A DNA stretch of 64,000 nt from an uncultured Actinomycetota bacterium (GTDB taxonomy: Bacteria; Actinomycetota; UBA4738; HRBIN12): positions 174,865 to 238,864 of the forward strand of contig CAWAPY010000012.1 in assembly GCA_963784055.1 (NCBI GenBank), read 5' to 3'. Shown one piece after another: positions 4,711 through 61,686 of this stretch. The notes under the pieces were generated by a model. That model worked only from the letters and a program-made list of their open reading frames with translations, had not been told where the DNA came from and searched no databases. Position numbers and translations under genes: made by a program. Position 1 is the stretch's first letter. Each line of letters opens with the position of its first letter.

Positions 4711-4738
4711 CTATCGGCGGGTTGGGGGACCGACCTGA
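4711..4738 (-). promoter_or_regulatory. Sigma28/WhiG-like promoter of the pilin gene
   Basis: Minus strand TCAGG-N15-GCCGATAG, ending 7 nt before the GTG start. Confidence 0.65.
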
Positions 4739-4775
4739 GGGCCGTGCTTCCTACGGAGCGATAGCATCGGACCGA

Positions 4776-13260: not shown

Positions 13261-14403
13261 CTAGTCGACGAGTCGCACAGGGACGAGCCCGAAGTTCTCG
13301 CCGCCGCCGCTGTCGAGGCCCTCGGGCGTGTATCCGACCCACTCGGCGATCATGCAGCGGGCGTTCGGGTCCTCCTCGATCCCCGCGAAGTGACCGCAGT
13401 GTTCGACGACCTCGTCGCGCTCGCTACCCCCTCCCCAGATCTCGCGGATGAACAGCCGCGCGAATCCGATGATGTCGTACTTGTCGACGGCGCAGTTCGT
13501 GGTCGCGAACAGGTCCGGGCTGCAGACGTCCCCGTTCGAATCGACCTGGGTGGTCGGCCGGTTGACCGGGAAGTAGATCGGATCGCCCAGGGCGATGGCG
13601 GCCTCGATGTCGTGGTCGAGGGCCTCTCCGAAGTGCCCCTGGCCGCGACAGACGTACGTGTGATCGTCCCCCGCCGTCCCGCCGTAGATGTTGGAGTCGA
13701 TGGGGAGTGGGAGGTTGAAGCCGCGGAGCATCCATTCCTCGAACTGGGGCGGGGTCGAGTTGTCGCAGTTCACCCCCGTGGTGATGTCCCACTTCAACAG
13801 GTCGAGCGTGCCCCACTCCGCGTTCGCGAGATCGGGCTCGGTGTGCCCGCTCGAGGAGTTGTTCCAGTAGAAGGCGCACTCCAACCCCACGTTCGACGTG
13901 GGGGTGTCGGGTGGGATGTCGCAGTCGCTCAACCGGTTCGCGGAGAGCATCAACGGGGCGACCTTCTCGCCGACCCCCGCGCCGCCCCAGGAGGCGGTCG
14001 CCGCGGTGGTGACGGCCGCGTCCGAGTCGGCGCCGAGCACCGGGGCGAAGAAGAGCGGCCGATCCGTCGTGACGTGCACGGTCACCAGCCCCGCGGGTGA
14101 GTCGCAGCTGGGGAAGAAGATCGGGTACCCCGAGACCAGGTTGGCATCGCTCTGGTTCTCGACGGCGTAGAACCTCGCCTGGACGATGGCCTCTCCCATC
14201 CCCTCCTTCTGCCCACAGGACTGCGCCGCCGCCAGGGCCGCCGCGTCGGCCGCGTTCACGAGCTCTCGGCGGGCGTACAGGAGGGATCCCACGTCGACGA
14301 CCAGGACCATCATGCCGAACATCGCGAGGAGGCTCAGGACGACGATGACGAGCACCGCACCGTCCTCGGCTTGCGGTGTCCGGGGGAAGCGGGGGCGCTG
14401 CAT
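13261..14403 (-). CDS. Orphan TadG-like (Tad domain) Cys-rich pilus-associated protein
   Basis: EDG|AVLVIVVLSLLAMFGMMVLVVDVG..ELVNAADAAALAAAQSC; clear paralog of 46694..48066. Confidence 0.85.
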   Translation of the reverse strand: MQRPRFPRTPQAEDGAVLVIVVLSLLAMFGMMVLVVDVGSLLYARRELVNAADAAALAAAQSCGQKEGMGEAIVQARFYAVENQSDANLVSGYPIFFPSCDSPAGLVTVHVTTDRPLFFAPVLGADSDAAVTTAATASWGGAGVGEKVAPLMLSANRLSDCDIPPDTPTSNVGLECAFYWNNSSSGHTEPDLANAEWGTLDLLKWDITTGVNCDNSTPPQFEEWMLRGFNLPLPIDSNIYGGTAGDDHTYVCRGQGHFGEALDHDIEAAIALGDPIYFPVNRPTTQVDSNGDVCSPDLFATTNCAVDKYDIIGFARLFIREIWGGGSERDEVVEHCGHFAGIEEDPNARCMIAEWVGYTPEGLDSGGGENFGLVPVRLVD

Positions 14404-39470: not shown

Positions 39471-41477
39471 TCAGATCTCCGTGAGCTGGTCCGCGAGATC
39501 TTCGGGATCCGTCACGGGGAGGCGACAGGTGAAGCGCTCACACACGTACGCGGTCGGGAGGCCGTCCACCTGCGGGCGGTCGCGAAGGAGCGCCACCGCG
39601 TCCATCGCCTCCTCGTCGTGAGGTTCGCCCATGGCGATGACCGCGTTCGGGAGGAAGCGGGCGCCGTGCACCTCGTTCACGAGCGACCGGGTGCGCTCGT
39701 CCTCGAGATCCCCGACGATGGCCACCTCCCGGGACGGACCGAGGGAGAGGTCGAGGGCGCAGAGGGCGTGACCGAACGCCGTTGGCGCCCTCCCCAACAC
39801 GTCACGGACCAAGCGGATCGCCGAGACGCCGATCCGCTCTCGGTCCGGGTCGCCGGAGAGGAGGGCGATCCGTTGGAGGACGTCAGCGGCCACCGAGTTC
39901 CCGGAGGGCACCGCGTTGTCGTACAGCTCCTTCGGTCGGAGGACGAGCGGGTCGTCGTCGGATCCCGTCTGGAAGAACCCGCCGTGCTCCGCGTCGAGGA
40001 ACAGGTCCACCACCGCGTCGATGAGCCCGACCGCCTCGCGGAACCACTCGACCGTTCCCGTGGTCGAGAAGAGCGTGAGGCAGGCCGAGGCCAACAGCGC
40101 ATGGTCATCGCAGAAGCCGGCCCGCCCCGGCACCCCTTCCCGCCATGAGCGCAGGAGTCGTCCGTCCGGCCGGCGGAGGTTCTTCAACAGGAAGCGCCCG
40201 CAATCCTCGGCGGCGTCGATGAACCGGGGCTCCCCGAACGCCCGGCCCGCTTCGGCCAATGCCGAGATCGCCATGGCGTTCCACGCGGTGAGCACCTTGT
40301 CGTCCGTTCCCGGCCGGACCCGCGCCCCTCTCGCCTCGAAGAGCGCGCGTCGTGCCGTGGAGAGGTCGAGCCCACTCGGCTCCGAGCCGCCCGGAAGCCA
40401 CAGCACGTTCGTGCCCTCCCAGTTGCCCGCCGGCGTGGCGCCGAAGGCGTCGGCAACGTCGGCGCCGATGAGGTCGACGAGGTCCTCCCAGGTCCACGTG
40501 AAGAACTTGCCCTCGACGCCCTCGGAATCCGCATCCTGACTCGAGAAGAACCCGCCCTCCGGGTGATGCATCTCGCGGAGGAGGTAATCGAGGGTGTCGG
40601 TCGCCACCCGGCGATACCGGCCATCGCGCGTCAACAACCATGCCCGGACGTAGAGCTGCGCGAGCTGCGCGTTGTCGTAGAGCATCTTCTCGAAGTGGGG
40701 GACGTGCCAGGCAGCGTCGGTCGAGTACCGCGCGAACCCGCCCCCGACCTGGTCGTAGATCCCGCCGGAGGCGATCCGATCCAAAGTCGTCGTGAGCATC
40801 TCGAGCGCGTCGGGCTTCCCGCGGACCGCCATGCGCAGGACGAACTCCAGCGTCATCGGCTGCGGGAACTTGGGGGCCACACCGAAGCCACCCCATCGCT
40901 CGTCGAATGCATCCCGCAGCTCGGCCAACGCACTCGTGCTGATCTCGTCGGTGAGCGGCTCCTCGGAACCCGTGACCGACAGGGTCCTCGAGATCGCCTC
41001 CACGACCCGGCTGCCTTGCCGTTCGACGTCGTCGCGGCGGTCCCTCCATGCTTCCGCGATCGCCTCGAGGACCTGCCGGAACGATGGCATGCCGTGGCTC
41101 GCCTCCTTGGGGAAGTAGGTGCCCGCGAAGAAGGGTCGTCCGTCGGGCGTGAGGAAGGCGGACAACGGCCAGCCACCCTGACCGGTCATCGACTGCACCG
41201 CATCCATGTAGATGGCGTCGAGATCGGGTCGTTCCTCCCGGTCCACCTTGATAGGAACGAAATTCGCGTTCAGGAAGGCGGCCGTCTCCTCGTCCTCGAA
41301 CGACTCGCGCTCCATGACGTGGCACCAGTGGCACGCGGCGTAGCCGATCGATAGGAAGATCGGACGCTCCTCGGCTTCCGCGACAGCGAGCGCTTCGTCC
41401 GCCCATGGGAACCAGTCCACCGGGTTCTCCGAGTGCTGGAGCAGGTACGGGCTCGTTTCCTGTGCCAGACGGTTCAT
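39471..41477 (-). CDS. YyaL/SPATA20-like thioredoxin-domain protein (DUF255)
   Basis: [55 protein letters not shown]. Confidence 0.93.
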
Positions 41478-41510
41478 CGCGCCAGTGTCCCGCAGGCGCC
41501 GAGGAACGGC

Positions 41511-41538
41511 TCATCTTTGGACCCGGAGATGCCGATGT
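41511..41538 (+). promoter_or_regulatory. Sigma28-like promoter of the first atypical response regulator
   Basis: TCATC-N15-GCCGATGT, 9 nt before ATG 41548. Confidence 0.5.
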
Positions 41539-41547
41539 TCCGGGCAG

Positions 41548-42213
41548 ATGATGGACACGATCCGCATCCTCGTGATCGGCGAGAGCCTTGGCCTCACACA
41601 GGATCTCCTGCTCGCGATCCGTCGACGGACGGGATTCCACGTCCTCGGTCCGGTCCCCGACGAGGTTGCGGCGCTGGAGCTGTTGTCCGAGGCCCTGCCC
41701 GACATCGTCGTCGTGGAGCTCGACCGGCCCGACGGCCGGGGTGTCGCGATCGTGTCCGAGATCAGGCGTCAGACGCAGATCCGCGTGATGGCCGCCACGC
41801 GCTTCCCCGCAGCGCCGGCCGTGGAGCTCGCTCTGGCCGCCGGTGCGTGTGGCGTCCTCGCCGCCGATCGGGATCCGTCGAGCCTGGTCAGCGCGTTCCG
41901 GCGGGCCGCCGCAGGCGAGCTCGTCCTTCCAGCTGACGACCGGCCACTGCTCGTTGACCAGCTCCAGGAAGCCCGTATCAGGCACTCGCGCCAGGACCTC
42001 CTGGCCACGCTGACGAGGAGGGAGCGCGAGGTGATCGAGGCGATCGCTCGCGGAGCGACGACGACGGGCATCGCACGCGAACTCGGGATCAGCCCCGGAA
42101 CGGTCCAGTCCCACGTCAAGAACATCCTGCGCAAGCTGGAGGTCCACTCGAAGGTGGAGGCTGTCGGCGTGGCGTGGCGTGGCGGTGTCGCGCTCGACGC
42201 GCGATCGGCCTGA
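41548..42213 (+). CDS. NarL/LuxR-family regulator with degenerate receiver (RR1)
   Basis: HTH LTRREREVIEAIARG..IARELGISPGTVQSHVKNILRKL. The receiver has VIGE instead of DD, VVVE instead of the phospho-Asp, and lacks the conserved Lys. Confidence 0.9.
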   Translation: MMDTIRILVIGESLGLTQDLLLAIRRRTGFHVLGPVPDEVAALELLSEALPDIVVVELDRPDGRGVAIVSEIRRQTQIRVMAATRFPAAPAVELALAAGACGVLAADRDPSSLVSAFRRAAAGELVLPADDRPLLVDQLQEARIRHSRQDLLATLTRREREVIEAIARGATTTGIARELGISPGTVQSHVKNILRKLEVHSKVEAVGVAWRGGVALDARSA

Positions 42214-42229
42214 GCGCTAGCCTCGCGCG

Positions 42230-42883
42230 ATGGCCGACATGGGGCGCGCGGTCGTGGTCGCCTCCCATCGGACCGTTCGGGCCGTGATCGAGCTGGCGTG
42301 CCGCGCGCTGGATGTGATCGTCGTCGGCACTGCCGATACCGCGGCCGAGGCGACCGCCGCATGCCGTTCGAGCGCCCCGGACCTGTTGGTCCTGGATCTC
42401 GATCTCCCCGATGCCGATGGCTTCCGCGTCCTGACCGACCTCGACGACGATCGGCCCGGGGCCGTGCTGGTGCTCGCCGACCGCGCCGATGGGGACATGG
42501 TCCTCCGGGCGCTGCGCCTCGGCGCACGCGGGTACGTGACGAAAGCAGACGGGCTTGGGGACCTCACCGCGACCATCCGTCGTGTTCTCGCCGGGGAACG
42601 TGTCATGTCCCCGGGGCTGGAGCACGACGTGATGGGGGCTCTCGGGCGCATGGCCAGACAGGCGAGGGAGGGCGCCGCCGTGGATGCCGATCTGACGCCG
42701 AGGGAACGACAGGTCCTCGAGCTCCTCAGCGGAGGCATGACGCTCGGACAGATCGCGTCGAGGCTCGGGATCTCACCACGCACCGTCGAGACCCACGTGG
42801 CCAAGCTCTATCGGAAGCTCGGAGTGCGAACCAGGGTGCAAGCGATCTCTCGCGCGGCCACGCTCGGGTTGGTCGACCTGTAG
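42230..42883 (+). CDS. NarL/LuxR-family regulator with partly degenerate receiver (RR2)
   Basis: HTH LTPRERQVLELLSGG..ISPRTVETHVAKLYRKL. It keeps LVLD and GYVTK but lacks the acidic pocket (VVASH) and the Thr/Ser (VLAD). Confidence 0.9.
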   Translation: MADMGRAVVVASHRTVRAVIELACRALDVIVVGTADTAAEATAACRSSAPDLLVLDLDLPDADGFRVLTDLDDDRPGAVLVLADRADGDMVLRALRLGARGYVTKADGLGDLTATIRRVLAGERVMSPGLEHDVMGALGRMARQAREGAAVDADLTPRERQVLELLSGGMTLGQIASRLGISPRTVETHVAKLYRKLGVRTRVQAISRAATLGLVDL

Positions 42884-42948
42884 CCTCACCGCATCGATCC
42901 CAGACCCTTTCGAACGAAGAGAAGATCCGCCCCAGCCACCGAGGACGC

Positions 42949-43653
42949 GTGAGCGAGAAGCGAACAGACGCAGACGACCGAACGTCCGCCGTGCGTCTGG
43001 GCGTGTTCGTGGTCGAGCCGTTCGCCGTCGTGCGTGCCGGTCTCGTACGGACCATCGATGAGAGCCCGGGCCTCGAGGTCCTCGGCTCAGCGGCGAGCGC
43101 CTCTGAAGCGATGGACGTCGTCGGTCGGCTCGATCGATCGCGAGTGGTCATCCTCGTGGCGATGGGCCTCGCCGGCGAGCAGGACGCCTACTGGCTGATC
43201 CGCGCCCTGCGTGAGCGATCCCCCGGACATGTGATCCTGGGGATGGGTGCGAACGCCGATCCGAACGCGGTCTCCCGGGCCCTGTTCACGGGCGCCGACG
43301 GTTTCGTCGACAAGAACGTGGAGGTCGAGGAGTTCCTCGCCGCTCTCCGGGCTTCGGGCGAGGAGGAGGTGGTGATCGCGGGACCCGCCGCCGCGTCGGT
43401 GGGCACGATCGCGGAGGGGATCGAACGCCGTCGGAGTCCGACCTTCCGCCTCACGCGACGCGAGCGAGAGGTTCTTCTGATCGCCTCGGAGGGACTCACG
43501 GCGCGGGAGATCGCCGAGCGACTCGGCGTACGGGAGCGAACGGTCACGACGCACCTGGCAAGGATCTACGGCAAGCTCGGCGTGGGGAACCGTCTCGCAG
43601 CTCTTCGCATGGCCGCACGATCCGGGCTCGTGTCGATGCGTCACGACGAGTAG
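42949..43653 (+). CDS. NarL/LuxR-family regulator with degenerate receiver (RR3)
   Basis: GTG 42949; HTH LTRREREVLLIASEG..VRERTVTTHLARIYGKL. The phospho-Asp position is Ala (VILVA). Confidence 0.88.
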   Translation: MSEKRTDADDRTSAVRLGVFVVEPFAVVRAGLVRTIDESPGLEVLGSAASASEAMDVVGRLDRSRVVILVAMGLAGEQDAYWLIRALRERSPGHVILGMGANADPNAVSRALFTGADGFVDKNVEVEEFLAALRASGEEEVVIAGPAAASVGTIAEGIERRRSPTFRLTRREREVLLIASEGLTAREIAERLGVRERTVTTHLARIYGKLGVGNRLAALRMAARSGLVSMRHDE

Positions 43654-45111
43654 CTAGGATCGGACGAACACGGAGCCGGCCGGGCCGTCGACAACTCGCC
43701 GCCAGCCGTCCGCCTCGGAGAGCTCGTCTTTCAACACCGCGTCAGGCGGTAAGACGACACCGTCGATCCGGTGCTCGTCGAGGATCTGTCGCCAGCTCTC
43801 CGTCGCGGCGATCGCTCGATCGTAGTCGTGCCACACCCCGTCGGGGAAGAGCTCGATCCTCGAATCGACCATCACGGGATCCTCCGGAAGCGAGTACTCG
43901 AACCAGGACGCGAACGGCTGATACACCAGCAGGCGGGATCCAGCCGGCAGGGTTGCGCGTGTCGCCTCGACGAGGACCTCGGGCGCGTCTGCCGCGAGTC
44001 GCTGCGTGGTGCCGGTCACGGGGTCGATCCCCGCCCGAAGGACCAGCGCGATCGGGATGAGCGCGACGATGCAGGTGGAGGCCGCGACCTTCAAGGGATC
44101 GACCCGATGAGCTCCATCGTCCGGTTGCTCCGGCGATCGGAACCATCGGGACACGACCGGGGGCGCCGCCAGCGCCCACCAGAGCGTGCCCCTGATCGCG
44201 GGGACGCCGAGAGCGAAGAACACGATCAGCCGCGCGATGTCGATCGGACGGACGCTTCTGCGCTTCCACAGTGCCGTCACGAGGACGATCACACCGGAGG
44301 CCCAGAATGGACCCCCGCTCAGCGACAAGGGGGTTGGAGCACGCCATTCGGCCACCCAATTCCGGATCGTCTCGTTGCGAGAGATCTCGACGGCGTATGA
44401 CCACACGCTCGGTCCGAAGGGTGTGACGAACGTCGCCGCAACGGTTGCCAGCAACACCAGCGAGGTCCGTGCCGCCGGTTTGCGGTCGAAAAGATCCTCA
44501 CCGAAAGCGAACGCCACCAAGAGCGGGGCGAGCACGAAGCTTCCGTGTACGTTCGCCCAGCCCAGGGCAAGGATCGGCACCAACCACATCCACTTGTCGC
44601 GCCTCGTGAGGAGCAGCCAGGTTCCCGTGAAGAGGGGCACGGCGAGCGCTTGGGGCCGAGGCGCAGGGGGTCCGGTGGCAACGAGAAGCGCCGACAGTGT
44701 GAGCACGGCAGCCGTTCGTGGGCGAGCTCCGGCCCGCCGACAGCTCGCGAAGAGGAAGCCGAAGCCAGCTCCGACCGCCGCCGCCATGGTCATGGCGACC
44801 CCAAACCACCCGAGCAACCGATGTGCCCCGGCGAAGACGAGCTGCGCCCCCCACTGCTGGTTCACCCAGGGAAGACCGCCACGAGTGAATGTGAACGGAT
44901 CCGTTCGGAGGAGATCCCCCGACTGCAGGGTGAGGGCGCCCGCCTTCACGTGGTAGGCAAGGTCGATGGCTCTCATCCTCGTCAGCAGCGAGGCCGTCGC
45001 GGGGAGCACAGAGGCCAGGAGCGCCCAAGGAGGTTGAGAGCGTCCGTGAGCCGCGGCCCCCGTTCGCCCAGTTCGGGACGCGGTGTTCGCAGGTGTGCCC
45101 AACCGGAGCAT
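43654..45111 (-). CDS. GT-C-like polytopic membrane protein divergent from flp
   Basis: DLAYHVKAG...DPFTFT.GG.PWVNQQW, RPQ, WANVHGSF, TPFG, EW, DSRIELF; many TM helices. Confidence 0.75.
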   Translation of the reverse strand: MLRLGTPANTASRTGRTGAAAHGRSQPPWALLASVLPATASLLTRMRAIDLAYHVKAGALTLQSGDLLRTDPFTFTRGGLPWVNQQWGAQLVFAGAHRLLGWFGVAMTMAAAVGAGFGFLFASCRRAGARPRTAAVLTLSALLVATGPPAPRPQALAVPLFTGTWLLLTRRDKWMWLVPILALGWANVHGSFVLAPLLVAFAFGEDLFDRKPAARTSLVLLATVAATFVTPFGPSVWSYAVEISRNETIRNWVAEWRAPTPLSLSGGPFWASGVIVLVTALWKRRSVRPIDIARLIVFFALGVPAIRGTLWWALAAPPVVSRWFRSPEQPDDGAHRVDPLKVAASTCIVALIPIALVLRAGIDPVTGTTQRLAADAPEVLVEATRATLPAGSRLLVYQPFASWFEYSLPEDPVMVDSRIELFPDGVWHDYDRAIAATESWRQILDEHRIDGVVLPPDAVLKDELSEADGWRRVVDGPAGSVFVRS

Positions 45112-45162
45112 CGTACGGGCTTCGGTCCGGTTCCCTGGCAGCCGGCGAAGAAGTCCAAATCG

Positions 45163-45178
45163 TACGTCGAAGTACGTA
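45163..45178. promoter_or_regulatory. Palindromic NarL-type box upstream of flp copy 1
   Basis: TACGT-CGAAGT-ACGTA, followed by GGAAT-N5-ATTCC (45191-45205) and a -10-like TATCGT (45225-45230). Confidence 0.6.
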
Positions 45179-45235
45179 CTGAAATGCAGTGGAATACGGG
45201 ATTCCTTGGTGCATGGGGCGCTTCTATCGTTCCCA

Positions 45236-45290
45236 ACTGGCGGAGTAGCAGTTCGCCTGTGGGGCGAAAGCCCCGAGGACGGGATCTCGG
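45236..45290 (+). ncRNA. Candidate structured 5' leader of flp copy 1 (no known family recognised)
   Basis: ACTGGCG..CGCCTGT stem, GGGGC-GAAA-GCCCC tetraloop hairpin, and an overlapping CCGAG..CTCGG stem directly before the SD. Confidence 0.45.
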
Positions 45291-45308
45291 AGGAAGGAGG
45301 TGTATCGG

Positions 45309-45516
45309 ATGCTTAAGCTCTACACGGGTCTTCAGACTTGGTGGGCCGACCTCAAGGCTCGCGCCACGGAGGAGCACGGCGCGACCGCGGTCGAGTACGC
45401 ATTGATGGTCGCTCTGATCGCAGTGGTCGATCATCCTGGCGGTGACCTTCATCGGCACGTCTGCTTCCACGAAGTTCAGCGAGGTTGGATCGGCAGTCAA
45501 CAGCGCCGGTTCGTAG
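45309..45516 (+). CDS. flp: Flp/Fap type IVb pilin, copy 1 (one extra C near 45428)
   Basis: EHG|ATAVEYALMVALIAVV; differs from copy 2 by GTGGTCGATC versus GTGGTGATC. Confidence 0.9.
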
Positions 45517-45528
45517 CTCCAACCGATC

Positions 45529-45593
45529 GAGCGGCCATCGGCCGCTCTCGCCGCTCTCGCCGTCAGGCGCAAGGGCGGCGAGAGCGGTCGAGA
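45529..45593 (+). terminator. Tandem hairpins after flp copy 1
   Basis: GAGCGGCC-ATC-GGCCGCTC, then CCGCTCTCGCCGT...GCGGCGAGAGCGG. Confidence 0.6.
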
Positions 45594-45820
45594 CCACCGG
45601 CATCCCCATCGGGATCGCTCATTCGACCCCGCAGAACCACTCGCCAGAGCGCAACCGGATCCTGGCGACCTCTCCCACCGCAGCGCAGGGTCAGTCAGAC
45701 CTTCGCCCTACGTCGGCATCGTTACTCCAGGCACGAAAAGGTATCCCTTTGGGGGTTCCACTTCCGCACCCAACGGGGTACCATGCGGCGTCTTCTTCGG
45801 GCACTCCTCGAGAGGATGCG

Positions 45821-45836
45821 TACGTAGAAACACGTA
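45821..45836. promoter_or_regulatory. Palindromic NarL-type box upstream of flp copy 2
   Basis: TACGT-AGAAAC-ACGTA, same spacing to GGAAT-N5-ATTCC (45849-45863) and TATCGT (45883-45888) as in copy 1. Confidence 0.6.
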
Positions 45837-45893
45837 GACAACTCCAGTGGAATACGGGATTCCCTGGAGGATGGGGCGCTTCTATCGTTCCCA

Positions 45894-45948
45894 ACTGGCG
45901 GAGTAACGGTTCGCCAGTGGGGCGAAAGCCCCGAGGACGGGATCTCGG
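45894..45948 (+). ncRNA. Candidate structured 5' leader of flp copy 2
   Basis: Perfect ACTGGCG/CGCCAGT stem, GGGGC-GAAA-GCCCC hairpin, CCGAG/CTCGG stem. Confidence 0.45.
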
Positions 45949-45967
45949 AGGAAGGGAGGTGTATCGG

Positions 45968-46174
45968 ATGCTTAAGCTCTACACGGGTCTTCAGACCTGG
46001 TGGGCCGACCTCAAGGCCAGCGTCACGGAGGAGCGCGGCGCGACCGCGGTCGAGTACGCGTTGATGGTCGCTCTGATCGCAGTGGTGATCATCCTGGCGG
46101 TGACCTTCATCGGCACGTCTGCTTCGACGAAGTTCAGCCAGGTCGGATCGGCAGTCAACGGCGCCGGTTCGTAG
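45968..46174 (+). CDS. flp: Flp/Fap type IVb pilin, copy 2 (intact, 68 aa)
   Basis: MLKLYTGLQTWWADLKASVTEERG|ATAVEYALMVALIAVVIILAVTFIGTSASTKFSQVGSAVNGAGS; strong SD GGAGGTG. Confidence 0.95.
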   Translation: MLKLYTGLQTWWADLKASVTEERGATAVEYALMVALIAVVIILAVTFIGTSASTKFSQVGSAVNGAGS

Positions 46175-46186
46175 CTCCAACCGATC

Positions 46187-46231
46187 GAGCGGCCATCGGC
46201 CGCTCTCGCCGCCGCCTCAAGGCGGCGGCGA
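46187..46231 (+). terminator. Tandem hairpins after flp copy 2
   Basis: GAGCGGCC-ATC-GGCCGCTC and TCGCCGCCGCC-TCAA-GGCGGCGGCGA. Confidence 0.6.
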
Positions 46232-46244
46232 TAGGAGCCGATGG
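46217..46244 (+). promoter_or_regulatory. Sigma28-like promoter of tadE
   Basis: TCAAG-N15-GCCGATGG, 13 nt before ATG 46258. Confidence 0.6.
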
Positions 46245-46257
46245 ATTCTCAGGAGTG

Positions 46258-46686
46258 ATGGGTGTGAGCGTGCGAAGCAAGCTGCGCCGGGAGGACGGGG
46301 CTGCCGCGGTCGAGTTCGCCTTGATCGTCGGGCTGCTCGCCGTCCTTATCTTCGGGTTGCTCGAGTACGGACTCGCGTTCTGGCAGGTGCAGAACCTGCG
46401 TTCCGCGGCCCGTGAGGGAGCGCGGGTGGCCGCGGTGCGCGGCGACGCCACCGCGGTGCGGAGTGCGATGGTCGATTCCTCCGCAGGCTCTCTGAGCGGA
46501 TCGTGGACGTACACACAGAATCGAACGTGCGACGGATCGACCGCGAACACGGGTCAGCAGGTGACGATCCAGATCACCAACAGCTCGCTGTCCGGACCGG
46601 TGCAGGAGGCCTTCCAGGTGTCCATCCCCTTCCTCCCGCCGCTCCAGCTCGACCCCGTCTTGCGAGGCAGCTTCCGCTGCGAATGA
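46258..46686 (+). CDS. tadE: TadE-like pseudopilin
   Basis: EDG|AAAVEFALIVGLLAVLIFGLLEYG...AAREGARVAAV; ends FRCE. Confidence 0.9.
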   Translation: MGVSVRSKLRREDGAAAVEFALIVGLLAVLIFGLLEYGLAFWQVQNLRSAAREGARVAAVRGDATAVRSAMVDSSAGSLSGSWTYTQNRTCDGSTANTGQQVTIQITNSSLSGPVQEAFQVSIPFLPPLQLDPVLRGSFRCE

Positions 46687-46693
46687 GCGTCCG

Positions 46694-48066
46694 ATGAGGA
46701 GGCGACCCCCCTTGGCCGATCCCAACACGCTCCGCGACGACGAACGCGGAGCGACCGCCGTCATCGTCGTGTTGAGCCTGATCGCGCTGTTCGGATTGAT
46801 CGTGCTCACGGTGGACGTGGGGCAATTGCTCTTCCAGCGCCGCGGGATGGTGAACGCCTCGGACGCGGCGGCCCTCGCCGCCGCTCAGTCGTGCGCGGGG
46901 CTCGATGATTCCGACGTCCCGGAGGCGATGGCCGATACCTTCGCGGTGAACAACGTCGGCAGCGCCATCACGGCGGTCCCGAACATCACGGAGATGGTCG
47001 GATGCGACGGTCCGGCGTACGGCCACGTCAGCGTCGAATACGCGATGAACCAGGATCTCTTCTTCGCAGGCGTTCTGGGCTTCAACGGACCGGCCTCCGT
47101 GCGGACCGCCGCCACGGCCGGATGGGGTCCCGCCGGCGGCGCGAACCCGCTCCCGATCGTCGTCTACACGGGGAACGACCAGGGCAACTGCGACATCGAA
47201 GAGGGAACCCCGGCGGGGGTCCCGTGCTACCTCTGGTACGACAACGACCTGTTCGAGAACTCCGCGTTCGGGTTCCTGAACCTCTGCACCGCCACGGACC
47301 CCTGCACGCACGGGTGGGATGTCGTGTCGGATGCGAACTGCCCGAACGTGGGATCGAGCCTCCGTGACGACTGGATCCTCGGGCAACTGGACGGGCGGGC
47401 CCAACGAGCTCAACTACCCGGATCCGACCTACGTCTGTGTCGTCACGGGAGTCTCATCGGCCAACTGGCAAGACCTCGAGCGGCGGGCCGGATTCCCGGA
47501 TGAGCGATTCCGACCTCATCTTCCCGATCGATGATTGCACCACCAACGTCGACAACAACGGGAACATCGTCGGCTGCGACGCGTTCCCGAACAAGTACAA
47601 CATCATCGGGTTCATCACCCTCCACCTCGACGAGGTGCTGCAGAGCGCCGCGGAGTGGGGCGGCATCGCGCAGACCTCCTGCCAGCGGAACAACCTCGAC
47701 GTGACGCCCGGGTTGGTCGTGCCGTTGTCGTCCTTCCCGGGAGGGCAGTGCCCCAACGGGAACACGCCCACGGGTGTGGTCGACTTCAGGATCGACAGCC
47801 AGACGTCGAGCCCGAACTGGACGTACGACAACCTGAACAAGCAGTTCACGTGGACGGGACCGGCGGACAGGGTCGACGTGAACTTCGACTGGTGGCTGGA
47901 CGGCGAGTGTGGCCAACCGCCTGCGAACTCCAGTGCCGTCTGCATCAAGGTCCACACGGTGAAGGTTCGCTTCGGTGGAACGGATCCCGGCGGAGGGGCG
48001 GACTTCGGAACGCGGGCGATCAGGCTCTGCGACCTCGCGATCGGGAGCTGTCCCGAACAAGATTGA
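46694..48066 (+). CDS. TadG-like Cys-rich pilus protein, frameshifts near 47380 and 47500
   Basis: ERG|ATAVIVVLSLIALFGLIVLTVDVG..NASDAAALAAAQSC; continues NWTGGPNELNYPDPTYVC and LIFPIDDC...GGGADFGTRAIRLC in other frames. Confidence 0.85.
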
Positions 48067-48076
48067 GCGAGAACAC

Positions 48077-48104
48077 TGAAGCCGGCACGGCGTCCGGCCG
48101 ATAG
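48077..48104 (+). promoter_or_regulatory. Sigma28-like promoter of the cpaB-tadC operon
   Basis: TGAAG-N15-GCCGATAG in the tadG-cpaB gap. Confidence 0.65.
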
Positions 48105-48144
48105 AGGAGACACACTCTGAGGATGGGTTGAAAGGAGCAAGAGG

Positions 48145-48939
48145 ATGAGGTCACGAGGTCTGGTGGTAGCGATTGCGATCGTGCTCGCCGTGGGCGCGGC
48201 TGCGGCCGTGGTTCTGTACACGCAAGGGGTGAAGGAAGACGCGGTGGAGGGCGGTCAGCTCACGACCGTCATCGTTGCGACCCAGGAGATCCCGGCCAAT
48301 CAGCGTCTGGACCCCCTGATCGAGCAGGGCCTGTTCACGGAGATCGACGTCCCCGCGGACGCGCTCGTCGGTGGGGCCGTCACCACCCTCGCCGAGCTCC
48401 AGGGAGCCACCACCACGACGCCGATCCTGGCGAACGAGCAGATCTCGACCTCCCGACTCTCTACCTCGGGAAGGCCCCTCAACATCATCGGTGTGAGCGA
48501 AGGCCACATCGGCCTCTCCGTGGAGCTCGATGCTCCTCAGGGCGGCGTCGGTAACATCCAGCCCGGCGACAACGTCGCAGTCTTCGCCACGTACCAGGGA
48601 GTCACATCATCCCCGGCAACCTGCGTCAGTACATCACGCAGCCAGCGGACGCGCAGACAGGCGGCCAAGAAGGACCTGCCCGACTTCACGGTGACACTCG
48701 TCCCGACCGTCCGGGTTCTCCGGATCCAGAACCCCCCGGTGGACAGCGAGACCGGACGGAGCGACAGCGCGCGGATCCAGGTCACGTTGGATCTCTTGCC
48801 GCAGGACGCGCAGAACCTGGTCTTCGCGCAGGAGAACGCGCGGATCTGGCTCGGCCTCCTTCCGCCGGATGAGGACGGGACGCAGCCACAAGCTTCGACC
48901 GTTCCGATCGAGCTCCTGCTTGGAGCGAAGCTCGGATGA
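48145..48939 (+). CDS. cpaB: Flp pilus assembly protein CpaB/RcpC
   Basis: N-terminal TM, SAF-like VIVATQEIPA, GVGNIQPGDNVAVFAT, VTLDL.PQDAQNLVFAQE..IWLGLL. There are probably compensating indels at 48600-48660. Confidence 0.88.
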   Translation: MRSRGLVVAIAIVLAVGAAAAVVLYTQGVKEDAVEGGQLTTVIVATQEIPANQRLDPLIEQGLFTEIDVPADALVGGAVTTLAELQGATTTTPILANEQISTSRLSTSGRPLNIIGVSEGHIGLSVELDAPQGGVGNIQPGDNVAVFATYQGVTSSPATCVSTSRSQRTRRQAAKKDLPDFTVTLVPTVRVLRIQNPPVDSETGRSDSARIQVTLDLLPQDAQNLVFAQENARIWLGLLPPDEDGTQPQASTVPIELLLGAKLG

Positions 48940-50157
48940 CGGACGCCAGCGTCGTCGCCGTCGGGACGCCGCAATCGTTCCGCCAACAGGTCGCCAGGGC
49001 CGTCGAGATGGGCCCGGACGAGGTGGGTTGGGTGCAGTCTGCAACGGCTGCAGAGGAGTTGTTGATCAACGCCTTCCAGCCCATCGACGTCCTGGTCCTC
49101 TCGCCCGAGGTCAAGGAGCCCGACGCGCTCGGCCTCGCCGAGTTCGTCGGGCGCCAGGCCCCCGGGACCGCCATGGTGCTGGTCCGGGATCACACCTGGA
49201 ACGGACTGTTGCCGGCGGCGATGCGGGCGGGTATCCGCGACGTCGTCGACATGACCCAGGGGACCGAGGAGCTCCGCGATGCCGTGGAGCGCGCGATCGT
49301 CTGGGCGGGGAACCTCCGCTCGGTCAACGTCACTGCGACGGACGGGCAGCCGGTCACTCGCGGCAGGATCCTGTCGGTCTTCTCCTCCAAGGGAGGGACC
49401 GGCAAGACCTTCCTGACGTCCAACCTGGCCACCGCGATCTCCGAGGTCACCGGGCAGGACACCGCCGTGGTGGACCTCGACATCGACATGGGCGACGTCT
49501 TCACGTACTTCGGCCGGGAGCCGACCGCCACGATCCAGGACCTGATGGAGCTGGGCGAAGGCGCCGAGCGCTCCCGGATCAAGCAGATCGGCGTCCAGCT
49601 GTCGGAGCACCTGTGGGGCTTCGGCGCCCCGCCGGACCCGGCGGCTGAGGCCCCGGCGGGCGAGGCGATCGGGAAGTTCCTGCGCGCGCTCCGCAACGAG
49701 TTCAGCTGGGTCGTCGTGGACGCCTCGGTGGACTACTCGGACTCCGCGCTGGTGTGCTTCGATCTGTCCGACGCGATCTGCCTGGTGACGGGCCTCGACG
49801 TCGTCGGCGTGAAGCACCTGTCCAAGTCGCTCGACACCCTGCTCACGATCGGCCTGCCGCGCGAGCGGTTCCGGGTCGTCTTGAACCGGGCGGACTCCAA
49901 GGTCGGCCTCGACGCCTCCGACGTGGAGCGCGTGATGAAGATCAACGTGGACGCGATGATCCCGTCCAGCCGGCTCGTGCCGACGTCCCTCAACAAGGGC
50001 CGGCCGGTCGTGCTCGACGAGCCCAACTCCGAGGTGGCGCAGGCGGTCCGGCAGCTCGCCACAGCGTTTCGCCGGCCAGGCCGAGATGGTCGCCGCCGGC
50101 GAGGCGGGGATCGACACCTCGAACAAGAAGAAGCGCAAGTTGTTCGCTCGAAGCTGA
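48936..50157 (+). CDS. cpaE: CpaE/TadZ pseudo-receiver plus MinD-like ATPase, frameshift near 50070
   Basis: Deviant Walker A SSKGGTGKT, VVDLD..GDV, VVLNRA. Removing one T gives the end ..NKKKRKLFARS* at 50157. Confidence 0.88.
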
Positions 50158-50201
50158 ACCTGAGGCCAAAAAGAAGGCAGAAGAAGGCAGAGGAGGCACC
50201 C

Positions 50202-51518
50202 ATGTCCCTGGCAGACAGGCTGCAGAAGGCCCAACAGAAGGATCGGATCGCCGAGGTCCGCATCCGGGTGCAGGAGCGCCTGGTCGAGAGCCTCGGACCC
50301 CGTCTCTACGACGCGACCCTGTCCGACACCGAGCTCGAGGGGATGGTGCATCAGCGCCTCCGCGAGCTCCTCGACGAGGAGGAGGGACCGCTCGCCGCGC
50401 AGGAGAAGCTCCTGATCGTCCGGCAGATCGGTGACAGCGTCCTCGGTCTCGGCCCGCTCGAGCCCTACATCCGCGACCCGGAGGTCACCGAGGTCATGGT
50501 GAACAACTGGGACACGATCTACGTCGAGCGCTCGGGCAAGCTGTTCTGGACCGGCACGAAGTTCCACGACGAGGGCCAGCTCCGCCGCACGATCGACAAG
50601 ATCGTCGCGAAGGTCGGTCGTCGCGTGGACGAGGCGAGCCCCATGGTGGATGCGCGGCTGCCCGACGGTTCACGTGTGAACGCGATCATCCCGCCGCTCG
50701 CGATCGACGGCCCCACGCTCACGATCCGGAAGTTCGCCGCCGACCCGTACCAGGCGGACGACCTGGTGGAGTTCGGCACGATGAGCTCGGCGGTGTCGAA
50801 GTTCCTCGAGTCCTGCGTCCGCGGCCGCATCAACGTGATGGTGGCCGGAGGAACCGGCGCGGGGAAGACGACGACGCTGAACGTGCTTTCGTCCTTCATC
50901 CCCGACGACGAGCGCATCGTCACGATCGAGGACGCGGCGGAGCTCAAGCTCCAGCAGCCGCACGTGGTCCGTCTCGAGGCTCGTCCGCCGAACATCGAGG
51001 GCAAGGGCCAGGTCTCGATCCGCGACCTCGTCCGGAACTCGTTGCGGATGCGGCCCGACCGCATCGTCGTCGGTGAGGTCCGTGGCGCCGAGGCGCTGGA
51101 CATGCTCCAGGCCATGAACACCGGTCACGACGGCTCGATCTCGACGATCCACTGCAACTCGCCGCGTGACGCCCTGTCCCGTCTCGAGACCATCACGATG
51201 ATGGCGGGGATGGACCTCGGCTCTCGCGCGATCCGCGAGCAGATCGCCTCGGCGATCCAGCTGATCGTCTACCAATCGCGGCTCAAGGACGGCACCCGCC
51301 GCTTCACGCACGTGACCGAGGTCGCCGGGATGGAGGGCGAGGTCATCACGCTCCAGGACATCTTCCTGTTCGACTACTCGGCCGGCCTGGACGATGAGGG
51401 TCGTTTCCGGGGCCGCCTCAAGTCCACGGGTCTGCGGCCCAAGTTCGTCGAGAAGCTCCAGGAGCGCGGCGTCAACATCGACCCTGAGCTCTTCGCGCTG
51501 GAATCGAAGGGCCGATAG
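50202..51518 (+). CDS. tadA: Tad pilus ATPase TadA/CpaF
   Basis: SD AGGAGG before ATG 50202; [56 protein letters not shown]. Confidence 0.95.
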
Positions 51519-51521
51519 ACG

Positions 51522-52530
51522 ATGCTGGCAGCAGACACCTTCTTCTCGAGCCAGGCGATGCTGGCGGTCGTCGTCGCGCTCGTCGCGCTGGCGGCGTTCG
51601 CCCTCGGGTGGCTCCTGTTGGGGACCGCCGCTCGCGTCAAGGCGGACCGTGACATGGCGGCGAGGATGGCCGCGATCGGCCGCCCGGTGCCGCAGCAGAC
51701 CGCGTCCGCGGTCGGCAAGCCGGGCTCCGGCTGGATCCCCGAGAGCGTTTCGTCCTTCGGCGAGCGGTTCGCCAAGGCGCAGGGCTTCGGAGAGAAGCTC
51801 GATGCCCAGCTCGAGGCCGCCGGTGTCAGCCTCCGGTCGGGTGAGTTCGTGGTCGCTACCGTCGGGGCCGCGATCGTGGGCGGGGTGCTGGGCGCGGCGT
51901 TGCTTCAGGATCCTCTCCTGGCGGGTGTGATCGGTCTCCTCAGCGGGGTTGTGCCGATCGCTCGTCCTCCGGATGTCCCTCGGTCGCCGAGGGGACAAGA
52001 TGCGCGAGCAGCTGCCGGACGTCCTGACCATCATGGCGTCGTCGCTGCGCGCGGGACATTCGTTCCTCCAGGCGCTCGACACCGTGGCCCGGGAGATCCC
52101 GGCGCCAGCGGATGTGGAGTTCCAGCGGCTCGTGGCCGAGATCCGACTGGGCCGTCCCCCGGAGGATGCCCTCGAGTCGTTGGCGGACCGCGTCGGGAGC
52201 GCCGACTTCCGCTGGGCCGTCCTCGCCGTGAACATCCAGCGCGAGGTCGGCGGCAACCTGGCAGAGATCCTCGACAACGTGTCGGACACGCTCCGGGAGC
52301 GCGCGATGATGCGCCGCCAGATCCGGGTGCTCACGGCCGAGGGCAGGCTCTCCGCCTGGGTCCTGGCGATCCTCCCGTTCGGGATCGCCCTCTACATGTT
52401 CGCCGTCAACCCGGAGTACATCTCGTTGCTCTTCACCACACAGGTCGGCCTGATCATGTTGGGCACTGGCGGGGTCCTCATGGTCCTCGGGATCCTCTGG
52501 ATGAGAAAGATCGTGGATATCGATGTCTGA
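51522..52530 (+). CDS. tadB: TadB (T2SS-F family), frameshift near 51958
   Basis: QLPDVLTIMASSLRAGHS, IQREVGGNLAEIL, LTAEGRLSAWVL. Confidence 0.9.
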
Positions 52531-53467
52531 GGTCTGGTTGGTACTCGCTGTCGGATGCGTCGCCGGAGCCATCGTGCTCTTCGGCATCTTCTTCGACCTG
52601 AGCCAGTCCGAGCGCCGTCGGGCCGTTCGGATGCTCGAATCGCAGGTCGCGGGCACGTCGAGCGAGAACGTGAACCTCCGGGAGCAACATCTGTCCGAGA
52701 GCTTCGGCGCCCGGATCATCGTGCCGGTGGTCGCCGGCGCCACGAGGGTGGCTCGACGCGTCACACCGATCGATGCGCGAGATCGCCTCGCTCGCAAGCT
52801 CTTGTTGGCAGGAACGCCCGCGGGATGGGACGCGGAGCGCGTCCTCGCGTTCAAGATCATCGGACTGGTCTCCGGGATCGTCTTGGCGTTGGTCGTGGCG
52901 TCCGTCATCGGGGACGTCACCCCGTTCATCCGGATCGTGCTGTTCGGGTTGCTGGGATTCGTCGGGTTCGTTGCGCCCGACTCCGTGTTGAACCGGCGCG
53001 TCGACGAGCGGCAGAAGGAGATCCTCCGCACGCTCTCGGACACCCTCGACCTCCTGACGATCAGCGTGGAGGCGGGACTCTCGCTGAACGCCGCGATCGC
53101 GCAGGTCGTGCAGAACGTGCCCGGCATCCTCTCCTCCGAGTTCGCTCGGATGCTCCAGGAGATCCAGCTGGGCGTGCCGCGAGGCGACGCGTTCCGCAAC
53201 CTCGCCGAGCGCACCGACGTCGAAGAGCTGAACGCGTTCGCGCTGGCGATGATCCAGGCCGACGTCTTCGGCGTCTCGATCGCCAGCGTCCTGCGGACCC
53301 AGGCGCAGCAGCTGCGGATCAAGCGGCGACAGGCGGCCGAGGCGAAGGCGCAGCAGACGCCCGTGAAGATCGTGTTCCCGCTGATCCTGTGCATCCTGCC
53401 CGCGCTGTTCGTCGTGATCGTCGGGCCGGGCGCGATCCAGATCTGGGAACAGTTCATCAACGCGTGA
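52523..53467 (+). CDS. tadC: TadC (T2SS-F family)
   Basis: LSDTLDLLTISVEAGL, IQADVFGVSIA, AQQTPVKIVFPLILCILPALFVVIVGP. Confidence 0.93.
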   Translation: MSEVWLVLAVGCVAGAIVLFGIFFDLSQSERRRAVRMLESQVAGTSSENVNLREQHLSESFGARIIVPVVAGATRVARRVTPIDARDRLARKLLLAGTPAGWDAERVLAFKIIGLVSGIVLALVVASVIGDVTPFIRIVLFGLLGFVGFVAPDSVLNRRVDERQKEILRTLSDTLDLLTISVEAGLSLNAAIAQVVQNVPGILSSEFARMLQEIQLGVPRGDAFRNLAERTDVEELNAFALAMIQADVFGVSIASVLRTQAQQLRIKRRQAAEAKAQQTPVKIVFPLILCILPALFVVIVGPGAIQIWEQFINA

Positions 53468-60423: not shown

Positions 60424-61574
60424 TCAGCCGGTCGGCGACGCCGGGAACGTGACCAGGAACGTCGTCCCGCTCCCCAGCTCGCTCTCGACATGGATCCTTC
60501 CTGAGTGGTTCTCCGTCACATGCTTCACGATCGCGAGGCCGAGCCCCGTCCCTCCGGTCTCTCGCGAGCGCGCGCGATCCACGCGGTAGAAGCGCTCGAA
60601 GATCCTCGGCACGTCCTTGGAAGGGATCCCCACACCTGAGTCGCTCACCCGGAGGAGCACCTCGCCGTCCATGGTCTCCACCTCGACCCGGACGTGTCCC
60701 CCTTCCTGGCTGTAACGGATCGCGTTGTCCACGAGGTTCCGGACGAGTAACGCGAGATCGCCCTGGATCCCCGCACGGGTGGCACGTCGGCCGCCACACC
60801 CTCGAGCGCCACGCCGGCTCGCTGCGCCGATGCGTCGAGGCGCTGGATCTCCTCCCGGACGACGGTCCCGAGCGAGACGAGATCGTCGAGCGCGCTTCCG
60901 GATTCGAGCCTCGAGAGGTCGAGCAGGTCGGCGACGATCCTGGAGAGCCGTACGGCTTCCCGCTCCAGTTGCGACGCGAAGTGGGGGATCGCTTCCGGGT
61001 CCTCCCTCGTTGCCCGGAGCAGGGTTTCGGCCGTCACCTGGATGGTCGCGGCGGGCGTCTTCAGCTCGTGCGAAGCGTTCGCGACGAAGTCCCTTCGTAC
61101 CGACTCGAGGCGTCGTTGCCGGGTGACGTCCCGGACGACGACGAGGGTAGCTCCGTCCGCCGTGGGGGTAACGGTCCCGCGGAGCCATCGAGGCGGGACG
61201 CCCGTCTCGACAAGGACCGACGTGGGCGCGTCGCCTTCGCGCGAATCCTCGATCGCCGCGCGGAGCGCGAGCGGAAGCACGGTCTCGACAGAGGTGGGTT
61301 CGGGGAGCAAGAGTTGGCCGACCGCTGCGTTCGAGAAGACCACCGCACCGTCCCGCCCGATCAACAGGATGCCGTCCTCCATCGTCGACAGGACCAAGTC
61401 GCGGACCTCGCGCTCCTCGCGTGCGCCGGCCAGCTGCTCCACCGTGGTCGCTTCCGCCCGATCGGCTCGCTGGCTCTGGCGCGATGCCGAAAGGACCGCC
61501 CGGCGCCACCCGATCGCCGCGCCGGCGGCGACCGAGACAGCGGCGGCCGCTCCCACGATCGCCGCGATCTCCAC
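60424..61574 (-). CDS. SenX3/PhoR-like sensor histidine kinase, frameshift near 60768
   Basis: One TM, PAS-like region, H-box DFVANASHELKTP, NLVDNAIRY, FERFYRVD.ARSRETGGTGLGLAIVKH. Confidence 0.88.
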
Positions 61575-61613
61575 GGGCGGCAGTGTAGGCGCGCGTGCGC
61601 GCTCGCCGAGGCG

Positions 61614-61646
61614 GTTCTCACATCGTTCACCTGAAGGCCACCCCGC
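61614..61646. promoter_or_regulatory. PHO-box-like 11-nt direct repeats, kinase side
   Basis: GTTCTCACATC GTTCACCTGAA GGCCACCCCGC. Confidence 0.65.
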
Positions 61647-61686
61647 GAGCCGCCGCACGCGGATCGGGGCCTTTGGCTCCGGGATG

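Follow-up and report, generated by a model that had tools for sequence, protein, structure and literature searches.

Three tandem NarL/FixJ-type regulators with degenerate receivers as a candidate phosphorylation-independent module for a Tad/Flp pilus locus in an uncultured actinobacterium

Three tandem genes, which we call RR1, RR2 and RR3, encode NarL/FixJ-type regulators with differently degenerate receivers and lie beside a Tad/Flp pilus locus in an uncultured Actinomycetota bacterium (assembly GCA_963784055.1, contig CAWAPY010000012.1). The window, that is, the whole stretch of DNA analysed, is 64,000 nucleotides (nt) long, and its positions are used throughout. We propose, with a probability of about 0.6, that the trio constitutes a lineage-specific, phosphorylation-independent transcription module for the adjoining locus. 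Each protein carries a receiver domain (REC) and a helix-turn-helix domain (HTH), as follows (lengths in amino acids, aa).

41548-42213, plus strand: RR1, 221 aa, NarL/FixJ-type REC and HTH; receiver with E57 in place of the Asp, A106 in place of the Lys and G11 at the first acidic position
42230-42883, plus strand: RR2, 217 aa, NarL/FixJ-type; D56 and K105 kept, without the acidic pocket (A11, S12) and the Thr/Ser (A83)
42949-43653, plus strand: RR3, GTG start, 234 aa, NarL/FixJ-type; Asp-less pseudo-receiver (A71, P24, G100), K122 kept

RR1 and RR2 are separated by 16 nt, and RR2 and RR3 by 65 nt. All three match the Pfam receiver model Response_reg (PF00072; 33.9, 60.7 and 34.7 bits for RR1, RR2 and RR3, cut-off 30.2) and the HTH model GerE (PF00196; 72.2, 68.8 and 61.0 bits, cut-off 23.5), the latter in agreement with an earlier note on this DNA, made from the letters alone, which had described the HTH domains as intact. 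None of the three reaches an NCBIfam equivalog or named-regulator cut-off, and phmmer places NarL, DevR/DosR, VraR/LiaR and DesR as their closest solved relatives. An AlphaFold2 model of RR3, built from a 33-sequence alignment, has a mean predicted local distance difference test score of 78.5 and shows a (beta-alpha)5 receiver, a linker helix and a four-helix GerE HTH. The top Foldseek matches to this model are LiaR, ChrA, VraR and RcsB, with VpsT in 45th place, and a look-up in the ESM Atlas returned generic LuxR-type response-regulator clusters only. Helix 3 of RR3 (D79, W82-L-I-R85 and R88) and its alpha4-beta5 region are nearly invariant among orthologues, which suggests a conserved contact surface. 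By architecture RR1-RR3 belong to the NarL/FixJ family; by active site they are atypical, kinase-less members of it.

Active-site residues were assigned from phmmer alignments to the solved NarL, DevR and VraR and from a MAFFT alignment with Escherichia coli NarL (taken from NC_000913). The residues found at NarL positions D13/D14/D59/S87/K109 are these.

RR1: G11/E12/E57/T84/A106
RR2: A11/S12/D56/A83/K105
RR3: E23/P24/A71/G100/K122

The phospho-acceptor quintet (the DD pair, the Asp, the Thr/Ser and the Lys) is incomplete, with three of the five residues gone in each protein. In one of three alignments, the pairwise one to DevR, M72 rather than A71 falls on the Asp site of RR3; there is no Asp in either case. 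The earlier reading that all three receivers are atypical therefore stands, as do its assignments of E57 in RR1, D56 and K105 in RR2 and A71 in RR3. Two small corrections apply to it: RR1 keeps one acidic residue (E12) and the Thr (T84), and in RR3 the losses extend to the second acidic residue and to the Thr/Ser. In PMC12632262, a pseudo-receiver is a receiver without any one of the five active-site residues, and by this definition RR1, RR2 and RR3 are all pseudo-receivers, RR1 (E57) and RR3 (A71) falling within the aspartate-less class and RR2 (D56) outside it. The recognition helices, SPGTVQSH in RR1, SPRTVETH in RR2 and RERTVTTH in RR3, are mutually distinct, as had been claimed, and are conserved; that of RR3, RERTVTTHLARIYGKLGV, is almost invariant among orthologues, and the HTH of RR3 as a whole is nearly so. 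At the positions of NarL K188/V189/K192, which we take to be base-contacting, RR1 has Q-S-K, RR2 has E-T-A and RR3 has T-T-A.

The degeneracy differs among the three genes in extent and apparent age. At the Asp site of RR3, 0/36 orthologues have Asp or Glu (A, S or G stands instead), the second pocket position is likewise acidic in none of the 36 (P, rarely A), and the Thr position is Gly in 35/36; the Lys is kept in 33/36. The change of RR3 to a pseudo-receiver thus predates the diversification of the order. RR2 orthologues carry the Asp in 33/33 cases and the Lys in 32/33, and the full canonical set (both acidic residues and the Thr/Ser) occurs in 6/33, all outside the window's genus. The Asp position of RR1 is D in 7 sequences of the genus, G in 5, E in 2, Q in 2 and N in 1, and across 30 orthologues it is D, G, E, Q, N or T. 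The Lys is present in just two of those 30 (loci L023 and L028), and these two carry the complete quintet. RR1 and RR2 thus began as canonical receivers, and residues went missing in different lineages, a degeneration that is recent and graded. The degenerate trio is real and not a product of chance, since orthologues from 30+ genomes repeat the pattern.

A further Asp lies two residues past the phospho-site (RR1 D59, RR2 D58). Nearly all RR1 orthologues share it, whatever residue occupies the phospho-site (VELDR, VGIDR, VQLDR), and it is present in the window's RR2 and part of the RR2 orthologues, where Glu often stands instead (DLDLP, DLELP).

The trio had also been described as orphans without an adjoining kinase, and the searches agree. 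Among 46 open reading frames (ORFs) scanned in the window, the single kinase-like one is a HisKA ORF at 60645-61658 on the minus strand, beside pstS/pstC-like genes and 17 kb away. The assembly (2.94 Mb, 20 contigs, 70% complete, 70% GC) has 15 HisKA_3 matches, none of them on the contig of the trio, and no cognate HisKA_3 kinase gene was found beside the trio among the window ORFs or in four related loci. One of those 15 distant kinases, or acetyl phosphate, might nevertheless phosphorylate RR2 and the Asp-bearing RR1 orthologues, which would leave RR3 alone as a true pseudo-receiver. The constancy of D56 and K105 in RR2 would fit, as would an aromatic residue mostly kept at K-3 and the complete quintets of six RR2 and two RR1 orthologues, yet these also are orphans. 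However, both metal-binding acidic residues are found in 0/15 RR2 sequences of the genus, the window's RR2 has Ala at the Thr/Ser position, and the Asp position of RR1 varies freely in the genus (E, N, D, G, Q). To go by the title of a GlnR study cited in PMC12632262, an Asp that is conserved yet unphosphorylated can reportedly serve dimer contacts, and this too counts against phosphorylation, which we regard as distinctly unlikely here.

The association with the pilus locus was next judged by conservation. The tallies of RR1 and RR3 presence, of WhiG sigma, of FlhA and of the palindrome described below include genomes flagged unpublished; the loci analysed contain none of those. Elsewhere in the genus, 22/24 genomes hold an RR1 orthologue (59-93% identity); the remaining two are 58% and 83% complete. 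No RR1 match above 37% identity was found in 16 genomes from other families. The order of a DUF255 gene on the minus strand, RR1, RR2, RR3, an optional membrane-protein gene, and then flp through cpaB to tadZA is identical in 16/16 loci of the genus (one cut by a contig end). Likewise, RR1-RR2-RR3 stand between DUF255 and flp/tad in 14/14 loci from 10 other genera of the family, so that all 30 family loci fetched share the arrangement. RR2-RR3 without RR1 lie beside tad in 4/6 loci from three other families, with unrelated genes upstream, none of them a kinase gene. RR3 is found in 115/201 genomes of the order, including 97/129 of the family (E<=1e-35), and in 23/401 genomes of a phylum-wide draw, just 3 of these outside the order. 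RR2 adjoins RR3 in 33/35 of the RR3 loci used for extraction, across four families. The suggestion that the trio is tied to the pilin locus thus gains from synteny that is family-wide and partly order-wide, and the palindromic box at the flp promoters adds to it.

The three proteins share 24-28% pairwise identity, and in a quick maximum-likelihood tree RR1, RR2 and RR3 each occupy one side of a branch (support by the Shimodaira-Hasegawa-like approximate likelihood ratio test 97, 99 and 100), with NarL among them; on these grounds they are old paralogues, and a recent tandem duplication is ruled out. Ratios of nonsynonymous to synonymous substitution (dN/dS), given below as Nei-Gojobori medians over 105-136 genus pairs, a method that is crude at 70% GC, are low in every domain.

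RR1: REC 0.33, HTH 0.21
RR2: REC 0.18, HTH 0.11
RR3: REC 0.19, HTH 0.07

All domains of the trio are under purifying selection, and these values (0.07-0.33), together with the conservation across the order, rule out pseudogene decay. In one genome, RR2 is split by a frameshift (locus L010, 6632-7292, genome G024); the split may reflect faulty assembly or a loss confined to that lineage.

A putative DNA target is provided by a 16-bp palindrome, TACGT-N6-ACGTA, which occurs twice in the window.

45163-45178, no strand: box 1, palindrome TACGTCGAAGTACGTA and candidate operator; 146 nt ahead of the start codon of flp1, 52 nt ahead of that of the membrane protein
45821-45836, no strand: box 2, palindrome TACGTAGAAACACGTA and candidate operator; 147 nt ahead of the start codon of flp2

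These two exact sites compare with 0.23 expected in the window, and two were reached by 1 of 100 shuffles. In the whole 2.94-Mb assembly, they are the only exact boxes, both at flp promoters, and the reversed control pattern has none. Among the fetched loci, a box with at most one mismatch lies 121-165 nt ahead of 29/31 flp copies (24 exact, 5 with one mismatch), and it is also present ahead of flp in a locus from another family that holds only RR2 and RR3. Across 201 genomes of the order, the exact box is found in 100 and the reversed control in 32. Genomes with RR3 have the exact box in 85/115 cases vs 15/86 of those without it, related genomes not being independent in this comparison; for the reversed control the figures are 18/115 and 14/86.

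The half-sites of the box are invariant and its six central bases variable, and the one-mismatch variants show no compensatory change, a pattern that fits recognition of DNA by a symmetric dimeric protein. The 16-bp, 7-2-7-like layout beginning with TAC presumably resembles NarL-family sites. Within the trio, the candidate binder would be RR3 or RR2, because the other family has the box but no RR1, and RR3 would be the first choice because its recognition helix is near-invariant. In Streptomyces the BldM homodimer binds a 16-bp palindrome and the BldM-WhiI heterodimer a non-palindromic site (PMC4125116); by analogy, the perfect palindrome points to a homodimer, not a heterodimer, at the box.

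The earlier note had favoured combinatorial dimers, and a form of this idea deserves weight: RR2 and RR3, with RR1 added in this family, may be obligate heterodimers like BldM-WhiI, so that the pilus genes would come on only when separately controlled partners coincide. That RR2 and RR3 so rarely part company is what one would expect of such partners, as are the differing residues at NarL K188/V189 (Q-S, E-T and T-T). The differing upstream motifs, of WhiG type for RR1 and TAGCCT for RR2, would suit coincidence detection as in BldM-WhiI (PMC4125116; PMC12632262). However, the sole clearly conserved DNA site is the perfect palindrome, which is of the BldM homodimer type (PMC4125116), and no further DNA element of a non-palindromic kind could be told apart from the structured leader described below. 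We therefore treat obligate heterodimers as possible but doubtful, and a homodimer, with RR3 foremost, as the preferred occupant of the box.

In one locus (L022, genome G104), copies of the palindrome are found at 3891-3906 and 3929-3944, just upstream of RR3 at 3968-4684, and one copy, TACGTGCCGATACGTA, contains a WhiG-type -10 sequence. The position of these palindromes hints at autoregulation by RR3.

Between the box and the pilin start codon lies a leader of about 130 nt, which is conserved across the family (loci L001-L034). The elements in question are the following (UTR, untranslated region).

45179-45308, plus strand: flp1 leader, second copy of the conserved leader
45309-45500, plus strand: flp1, Flp pilin copy; beyond roughly codon 40 its frame departs from that of flp2, and only 40 aa align to flp2
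45837-45967, plus strand: flp2 leader, conserved, with hairpins A and B, a GNRA hairpin and a CUUCUA motif; probable structured 5' UTR
45968-46174, plus strand: flp2, intact Flp/Fap pilin gene, 68 aa

The leader hairpins are A (GGAAU..AUUCC), B (GGCGGAAU-AGC-AUUCCGCC) and C (a GNRA-capped GGGGC..GCCCC), and the same hairpins recur when 22 leaders are folded by minimum free energy (z from -4.7 to +1.2). For hairpin B, 85.8% of cells are paired vs 77.3 +/- 1.8 in shuffles (reached by 0/500), slid controls give 28-74%, and 4/6 pairs show compensatory changes. The CUUCUA motif pairs with the GGAGGAAGG ribosome-binding region in several leader folds. A scan of 41000-47000 against Rfam (E<=1) returned no family. 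The leader is probably a structured 5' UTR, and actinobacterial flp genes may have in it a cis-regulatory element not described before.

Transcript evidence comes from a soil metatranscriptome, in which a 334-nt contig matches 45842-46175 with 2 differences and thus covers flp2 and 126 nt of its leader, starting 6 nt past box 2. The rest of 41400-46300 is represented in that run by very short or chimeric pieces only. The contig start, together with the 5'-UTR-like folding, would place the box either immediately ahead of the transcribed region or right at its beginning, and whether binding at the box activates or represses depends on its position relative to the transcription start. A first flp promoter model, with TANNNT 47-52 nt past the box as -10 and the box centre near -66, is contradicted by the start of this contig. 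The motif GGAAA-N3-GGAAT as a second operator at -35 was also dropped, as it lies inside the leader with its covarying hairpins and in view of the contig start. A sigma-70 consensus scan of 41300-46300 gave 0 promoters, and a terminator scan of the same segment gave 2 terminator-like sites, both on the minus strand and within chance.

Box, leader and flp together form a 658-bp tandem duplication (45161-45554 and 45819-46212; 90-97% identity), whose 5' edge is 2 nt before the palindrome. Relative to flp2, flp1 has one extra base near 45429 that causes its frameshift, and the closest relative (L001) has two full-length copies; the frameshift could be a genuine pseudogene or an assembly error, and none of the contigs of three DNA runs crosses the stretch concerned (45336-45499).

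The location of the box at the edge of this duplicated unit, directly before a leader with conserved, covarying hairpins and 6 nt from the start of the RNA contig, raises a different reading: the palindrome may be a promoter element or a 5'-terminal RNA hairpin of the flp transcript, with the regulators acting elsewhere or pilin control exerted mainly through the leader RNA. RNAalifold, run on a MAFFT leader alignment that is not structure-aware, indeed pairs the box arms, and only those. However, the four pairs it draws (TACG with CGTA) are invariant in 22 sequences with 0/4 compensatory, and the fifth is broken by the one-mismatch variants without compensation, which is the pattern of a protein-DNA half-site, not that of an RNA stem. 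The box also co-occurs with RR3. On balance, an RNA or promoter role for the palindrome seems unlikely, and we retain the view of the box as an operator.

If phosphorylation no longer sets the activity of these regulators, their promoters become of interest. All promoter readings here are inferred from motifs, of which two stand directly before genes of the trio.

41510-41538, plus strand: sigma-WhiG-type motif CTCA-N17-GCCGATGT, ending 9 nt before the RR1 start codon
42218-42223, plus strand: TAGCCT, -10-like (TANNNT), 6 nt before the RR2 start codon

The WhiG consensus in Actinomycetota has CTCA or T(A/C)AA as -35, a spacer of N16-17 and a -10 of GCCGA.. (bioRxiv 10.64898/2026.01.14.699351; PMC8325347). 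Upstream of RR1, (C/T)TCA-N17-GCCGATG is kept while the spacer varies, and a strict form, CTCA-N16-17-GCCGA, and a loose form were counted before each gene.

Before RR1: strict form 20/30 loci, loose form 27/30
Before RR2: strict form 0/33, loose form 0/33
Before RR3: strict form 8/35, loose form 12/35

In the bacterium's own genome, CTCA-N16-17-GCCGAT has 33 matches vs 9 for the reversed control. A FliA/WhiG-family sigma factor is present (contig C11, 43817-44491; TIGR02479, 270.9 bits, cut-off 189.6) and scores above cut-off in 24/26 relatives, whereas the flagellar export gene FlhA (PF00771) was found in 0/26 genomes, 13 of them at least 90% complete, which argues that this sigma factor does not serve a flagellum. 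Published precedents are the transcription of whiI by sigma-WhiG in Streptomyces (PMC4125116) and WhiG promoters inside a type IV pilus cluster in Rubrobacter (PMC8325347). Before RR2, a TANNNT element is found 5-8 nt ahead of the start in 22/33 loci, and TAGCCT may be a separate RR2 promoter giving a leaderless mRNA. A WhiG-type promoter for tadE, CTCA-N17-GCCGATGG at 46216-46244 between flp2 and tadE, was considered and set aside as probably not a conserved promoter: it recurs in 3/24 loci and overlaps a 25-nt inverted repeat at 46193-46244. Elsewhere in the window, an exact WhiG-type match at 4713-4739 on the minus strand lies 82 nt before a 121-aa ORF (4265-4630, minus strand) that has no known family.

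The remaining genes of the locus are listed here; those of the Tad assembly set rest on Pfam and NCBIfam matches.

39471-41477, minus strand: DUF255 thioredoxin-like gene, divergent from RR1
43654-45111, minus strand: multi-pass membrane protein, 485 aa, divergent from flp, optional member of the locus, no Pfam or NCBIfam match
46261-53467, plus strand: Tad assembly genes, the first of them TadE-like
46694-47503, plus strand: TadG-like
47437-48066, plus strand: ORF without assigned family
48145-48939, plus strand: CpaB
48936-51518, plus strand: TadZ-TadA fusion, 860-aa ORF
51949-52530, plus strand: TadB
52523-53467, plus strand: TadC

NCBIfam and Pfam gave no match for the membrane protein, for ORF 47437-48066 or for ORF 4265-4630. 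In the fusion, TadZ (a MinD/ParA-like ATPase) and TadA (the secretion ATPase) share one ORF, and the fusion is kept in related loci. A second TadE/G-like gene (PF13400) lies at 13261-14403 on the minus strand, 30 kb from the tad locus.

The trio could instead regulate other genes, for example two of these neighbours, with the tad neighbourhood incidental. The DUF255 gene divergently adjoins RR1 in 30/30 family loci, and box 1 stands before the membrane-protein start as well as before flp1. In other families, however, RR2-RR3 stay with tad while the upstream neighbours become unrelated genes. The membrane protein, which lies between RR3 and flp in 9/15 judgeable genus loci and in several other genera, is missing from 6/15 genus loci, and there the box remains. 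Control of these neighbours in place of the pilus genes is accordingly hard to credit, and the Tad/Flp locus is the target we carry forward.

Taken together, the preferred mechanism would run as follows. The module would consist of three NarL/FixJ-type regulators of ancient divergence, with receivers that have ceased to function through phosphorylation of the Asp. Their activity would be set mainly by the amount of each that is made, as there is no kinase input. RR1 would be transcribed from the promoter matching the sigma-WhiG type, in a genome that has a WhiG-family sigma factor and in which no flagellar export gene was found, and RR2 would probably be driven by its own -10 element directly at the start codon. 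At least one of the proteins would bind the palindrome before flp as a dimer. RR3 is the best candidate, being the most conserved, having a recognition helix that is nearly invariant order-wide and being present wherever the box is seen beside tad. The pseudo-receivers would have been retained as dimerization or partner surfaces, not as phosphorylation switches.

Several observations weigh against this proposal. The link between box and RR3 consists of co-occurrence and proximity, which are equally true of RR2 and of the whole tad locus, and the genomes compared are related and not independent. The retention of Asp and Lys in RR2, and of Asp in many RR1 orthologues, leaves room for residual phospho-control or for an Asp-dependent dimer contact in these two proteins. 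With the assembly only 70% complete, a cognate kinase could be missing from it. The RR1 motif is a consensus match whose -10 reads GCCGATGT rather than the published GCCGAACT or GCCGATAA, and the strict WhiG motif stands before RR3 in 0/16 sequences of the window's genus and before tadE in only 3/24 loci. Finally, the RNA contig and the conserved 5'-UTR-like fold went against the first promoter model, so that the box may lie either ahead of the transcription start or within the transcript; contigs of an RNA library cannot show true RNA ends, and DNA carry-over is possible in such a library.

How pseudo-receivers are switched on and off is acknowledged as an open question (PMC12632262), and this locus bears on it in three ways. 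The orthologues form a natural series, with complete active sites in some genomes and various degrees of loss in others; there is a single well-defined candidate target, the palindrome being confined in this assembly to the pilin promoters; and a WhiG-type promoter is a plausible replacement input for phosphorylation. What replaces phosphorylation, and whether homo- or heterodimers act, could be put to a direct test using three small proteins and some 300 bp of DNA. WhiG-family sigma factors, already linked to pili, would through this locus be tied to the Tad/Flp type as well, in a soil lineage that is abundant and uncultured. No description of a tad-linked trio of atypical regulators was found in the literature searched, which did hold its separate elements: BldM-WhiI, PprB, the tie of WhiG to pili, and a review of pseudo-receivers.

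One close parallel is BldM/WhiI of Streptomyces (PMC4125116), which are likewise orphan NarL/FixJ-type regulators acting independently of phosphorylation, a property that for RR1-RR3 is deduced from sequence. The pocket of WhiI is degenerate, lacking the Lys as well as one of the paired Asp residues. Its gene is a target of sigma-WhiG, RR1 carries a WhiG-type promoter motif, and the 16-bp palindrome of the BldM homodimer has its counterpart in the flp box. In contrast, BldM and WhiI are encoded by two unlinked genes with sporulation targets, whereas here three tandem genes have a Tad/Flp locus as putative target, and all three receivers are degenerate, two of them without the Asp. PprB of Pseudomonas aeruginosa is similar in being a NarL/LuxR-family regulator beside the flp-tad locus that it controls, but it belongs to a classical two-component system with the kinase PprA (PMC3510237), whereas the trio has no adjoining kinase and consists of pseudo-receivers. 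VpsT/CsgD, the RcsB partners and SecR also combine a REC-like domain with a LuxR-type HTH without phospho-acceptor chemistry, and they use the receiver for multimerization or ligand control (PMC12632262; PMC13199381). Unlike in VpsT, no motif for cyclic di-GMP was identified at the VpsT position, and the conserved W82-L-I-R85 of RR3 lies in a different place, on helix 3.

For the promoter side, RsiG-WhiG of Rubrobacter (PMC8325347) similarly links a non-flagellar WhiG-family sigma factor to pilus genes in unicellular actinobacteria, and response-regulator genes are among the predicted targets of Actinomycetota WhiG regulons (bioRxiv 10.64898/2026.01.14.699351). The Rubrobacter promoters, however, lie directly in a type IVa pil cluster, whereas here the motif stands before RR1 (before RR3 in other genera) and the locus is of the Tad/Flp type. 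As a speculation that we hold to be rather improbable, this locus may preserve an ancestral actinobacterial circuit, in which a non-flagellar WhiG, possibly gated by cyclic di-GMP, drives atypical NarL-type regulators and these in turn surface pili. The order-wide RR2-RR3 pair would then be an obligate heterodimer with RR1 as a WhiG-timed third partner, the orthologue series would record a stepwise release from the kinase, and the WhiG to WhiI/BldM sporulation pathway of Streptomyces would be a rewired descendant of that circuit.

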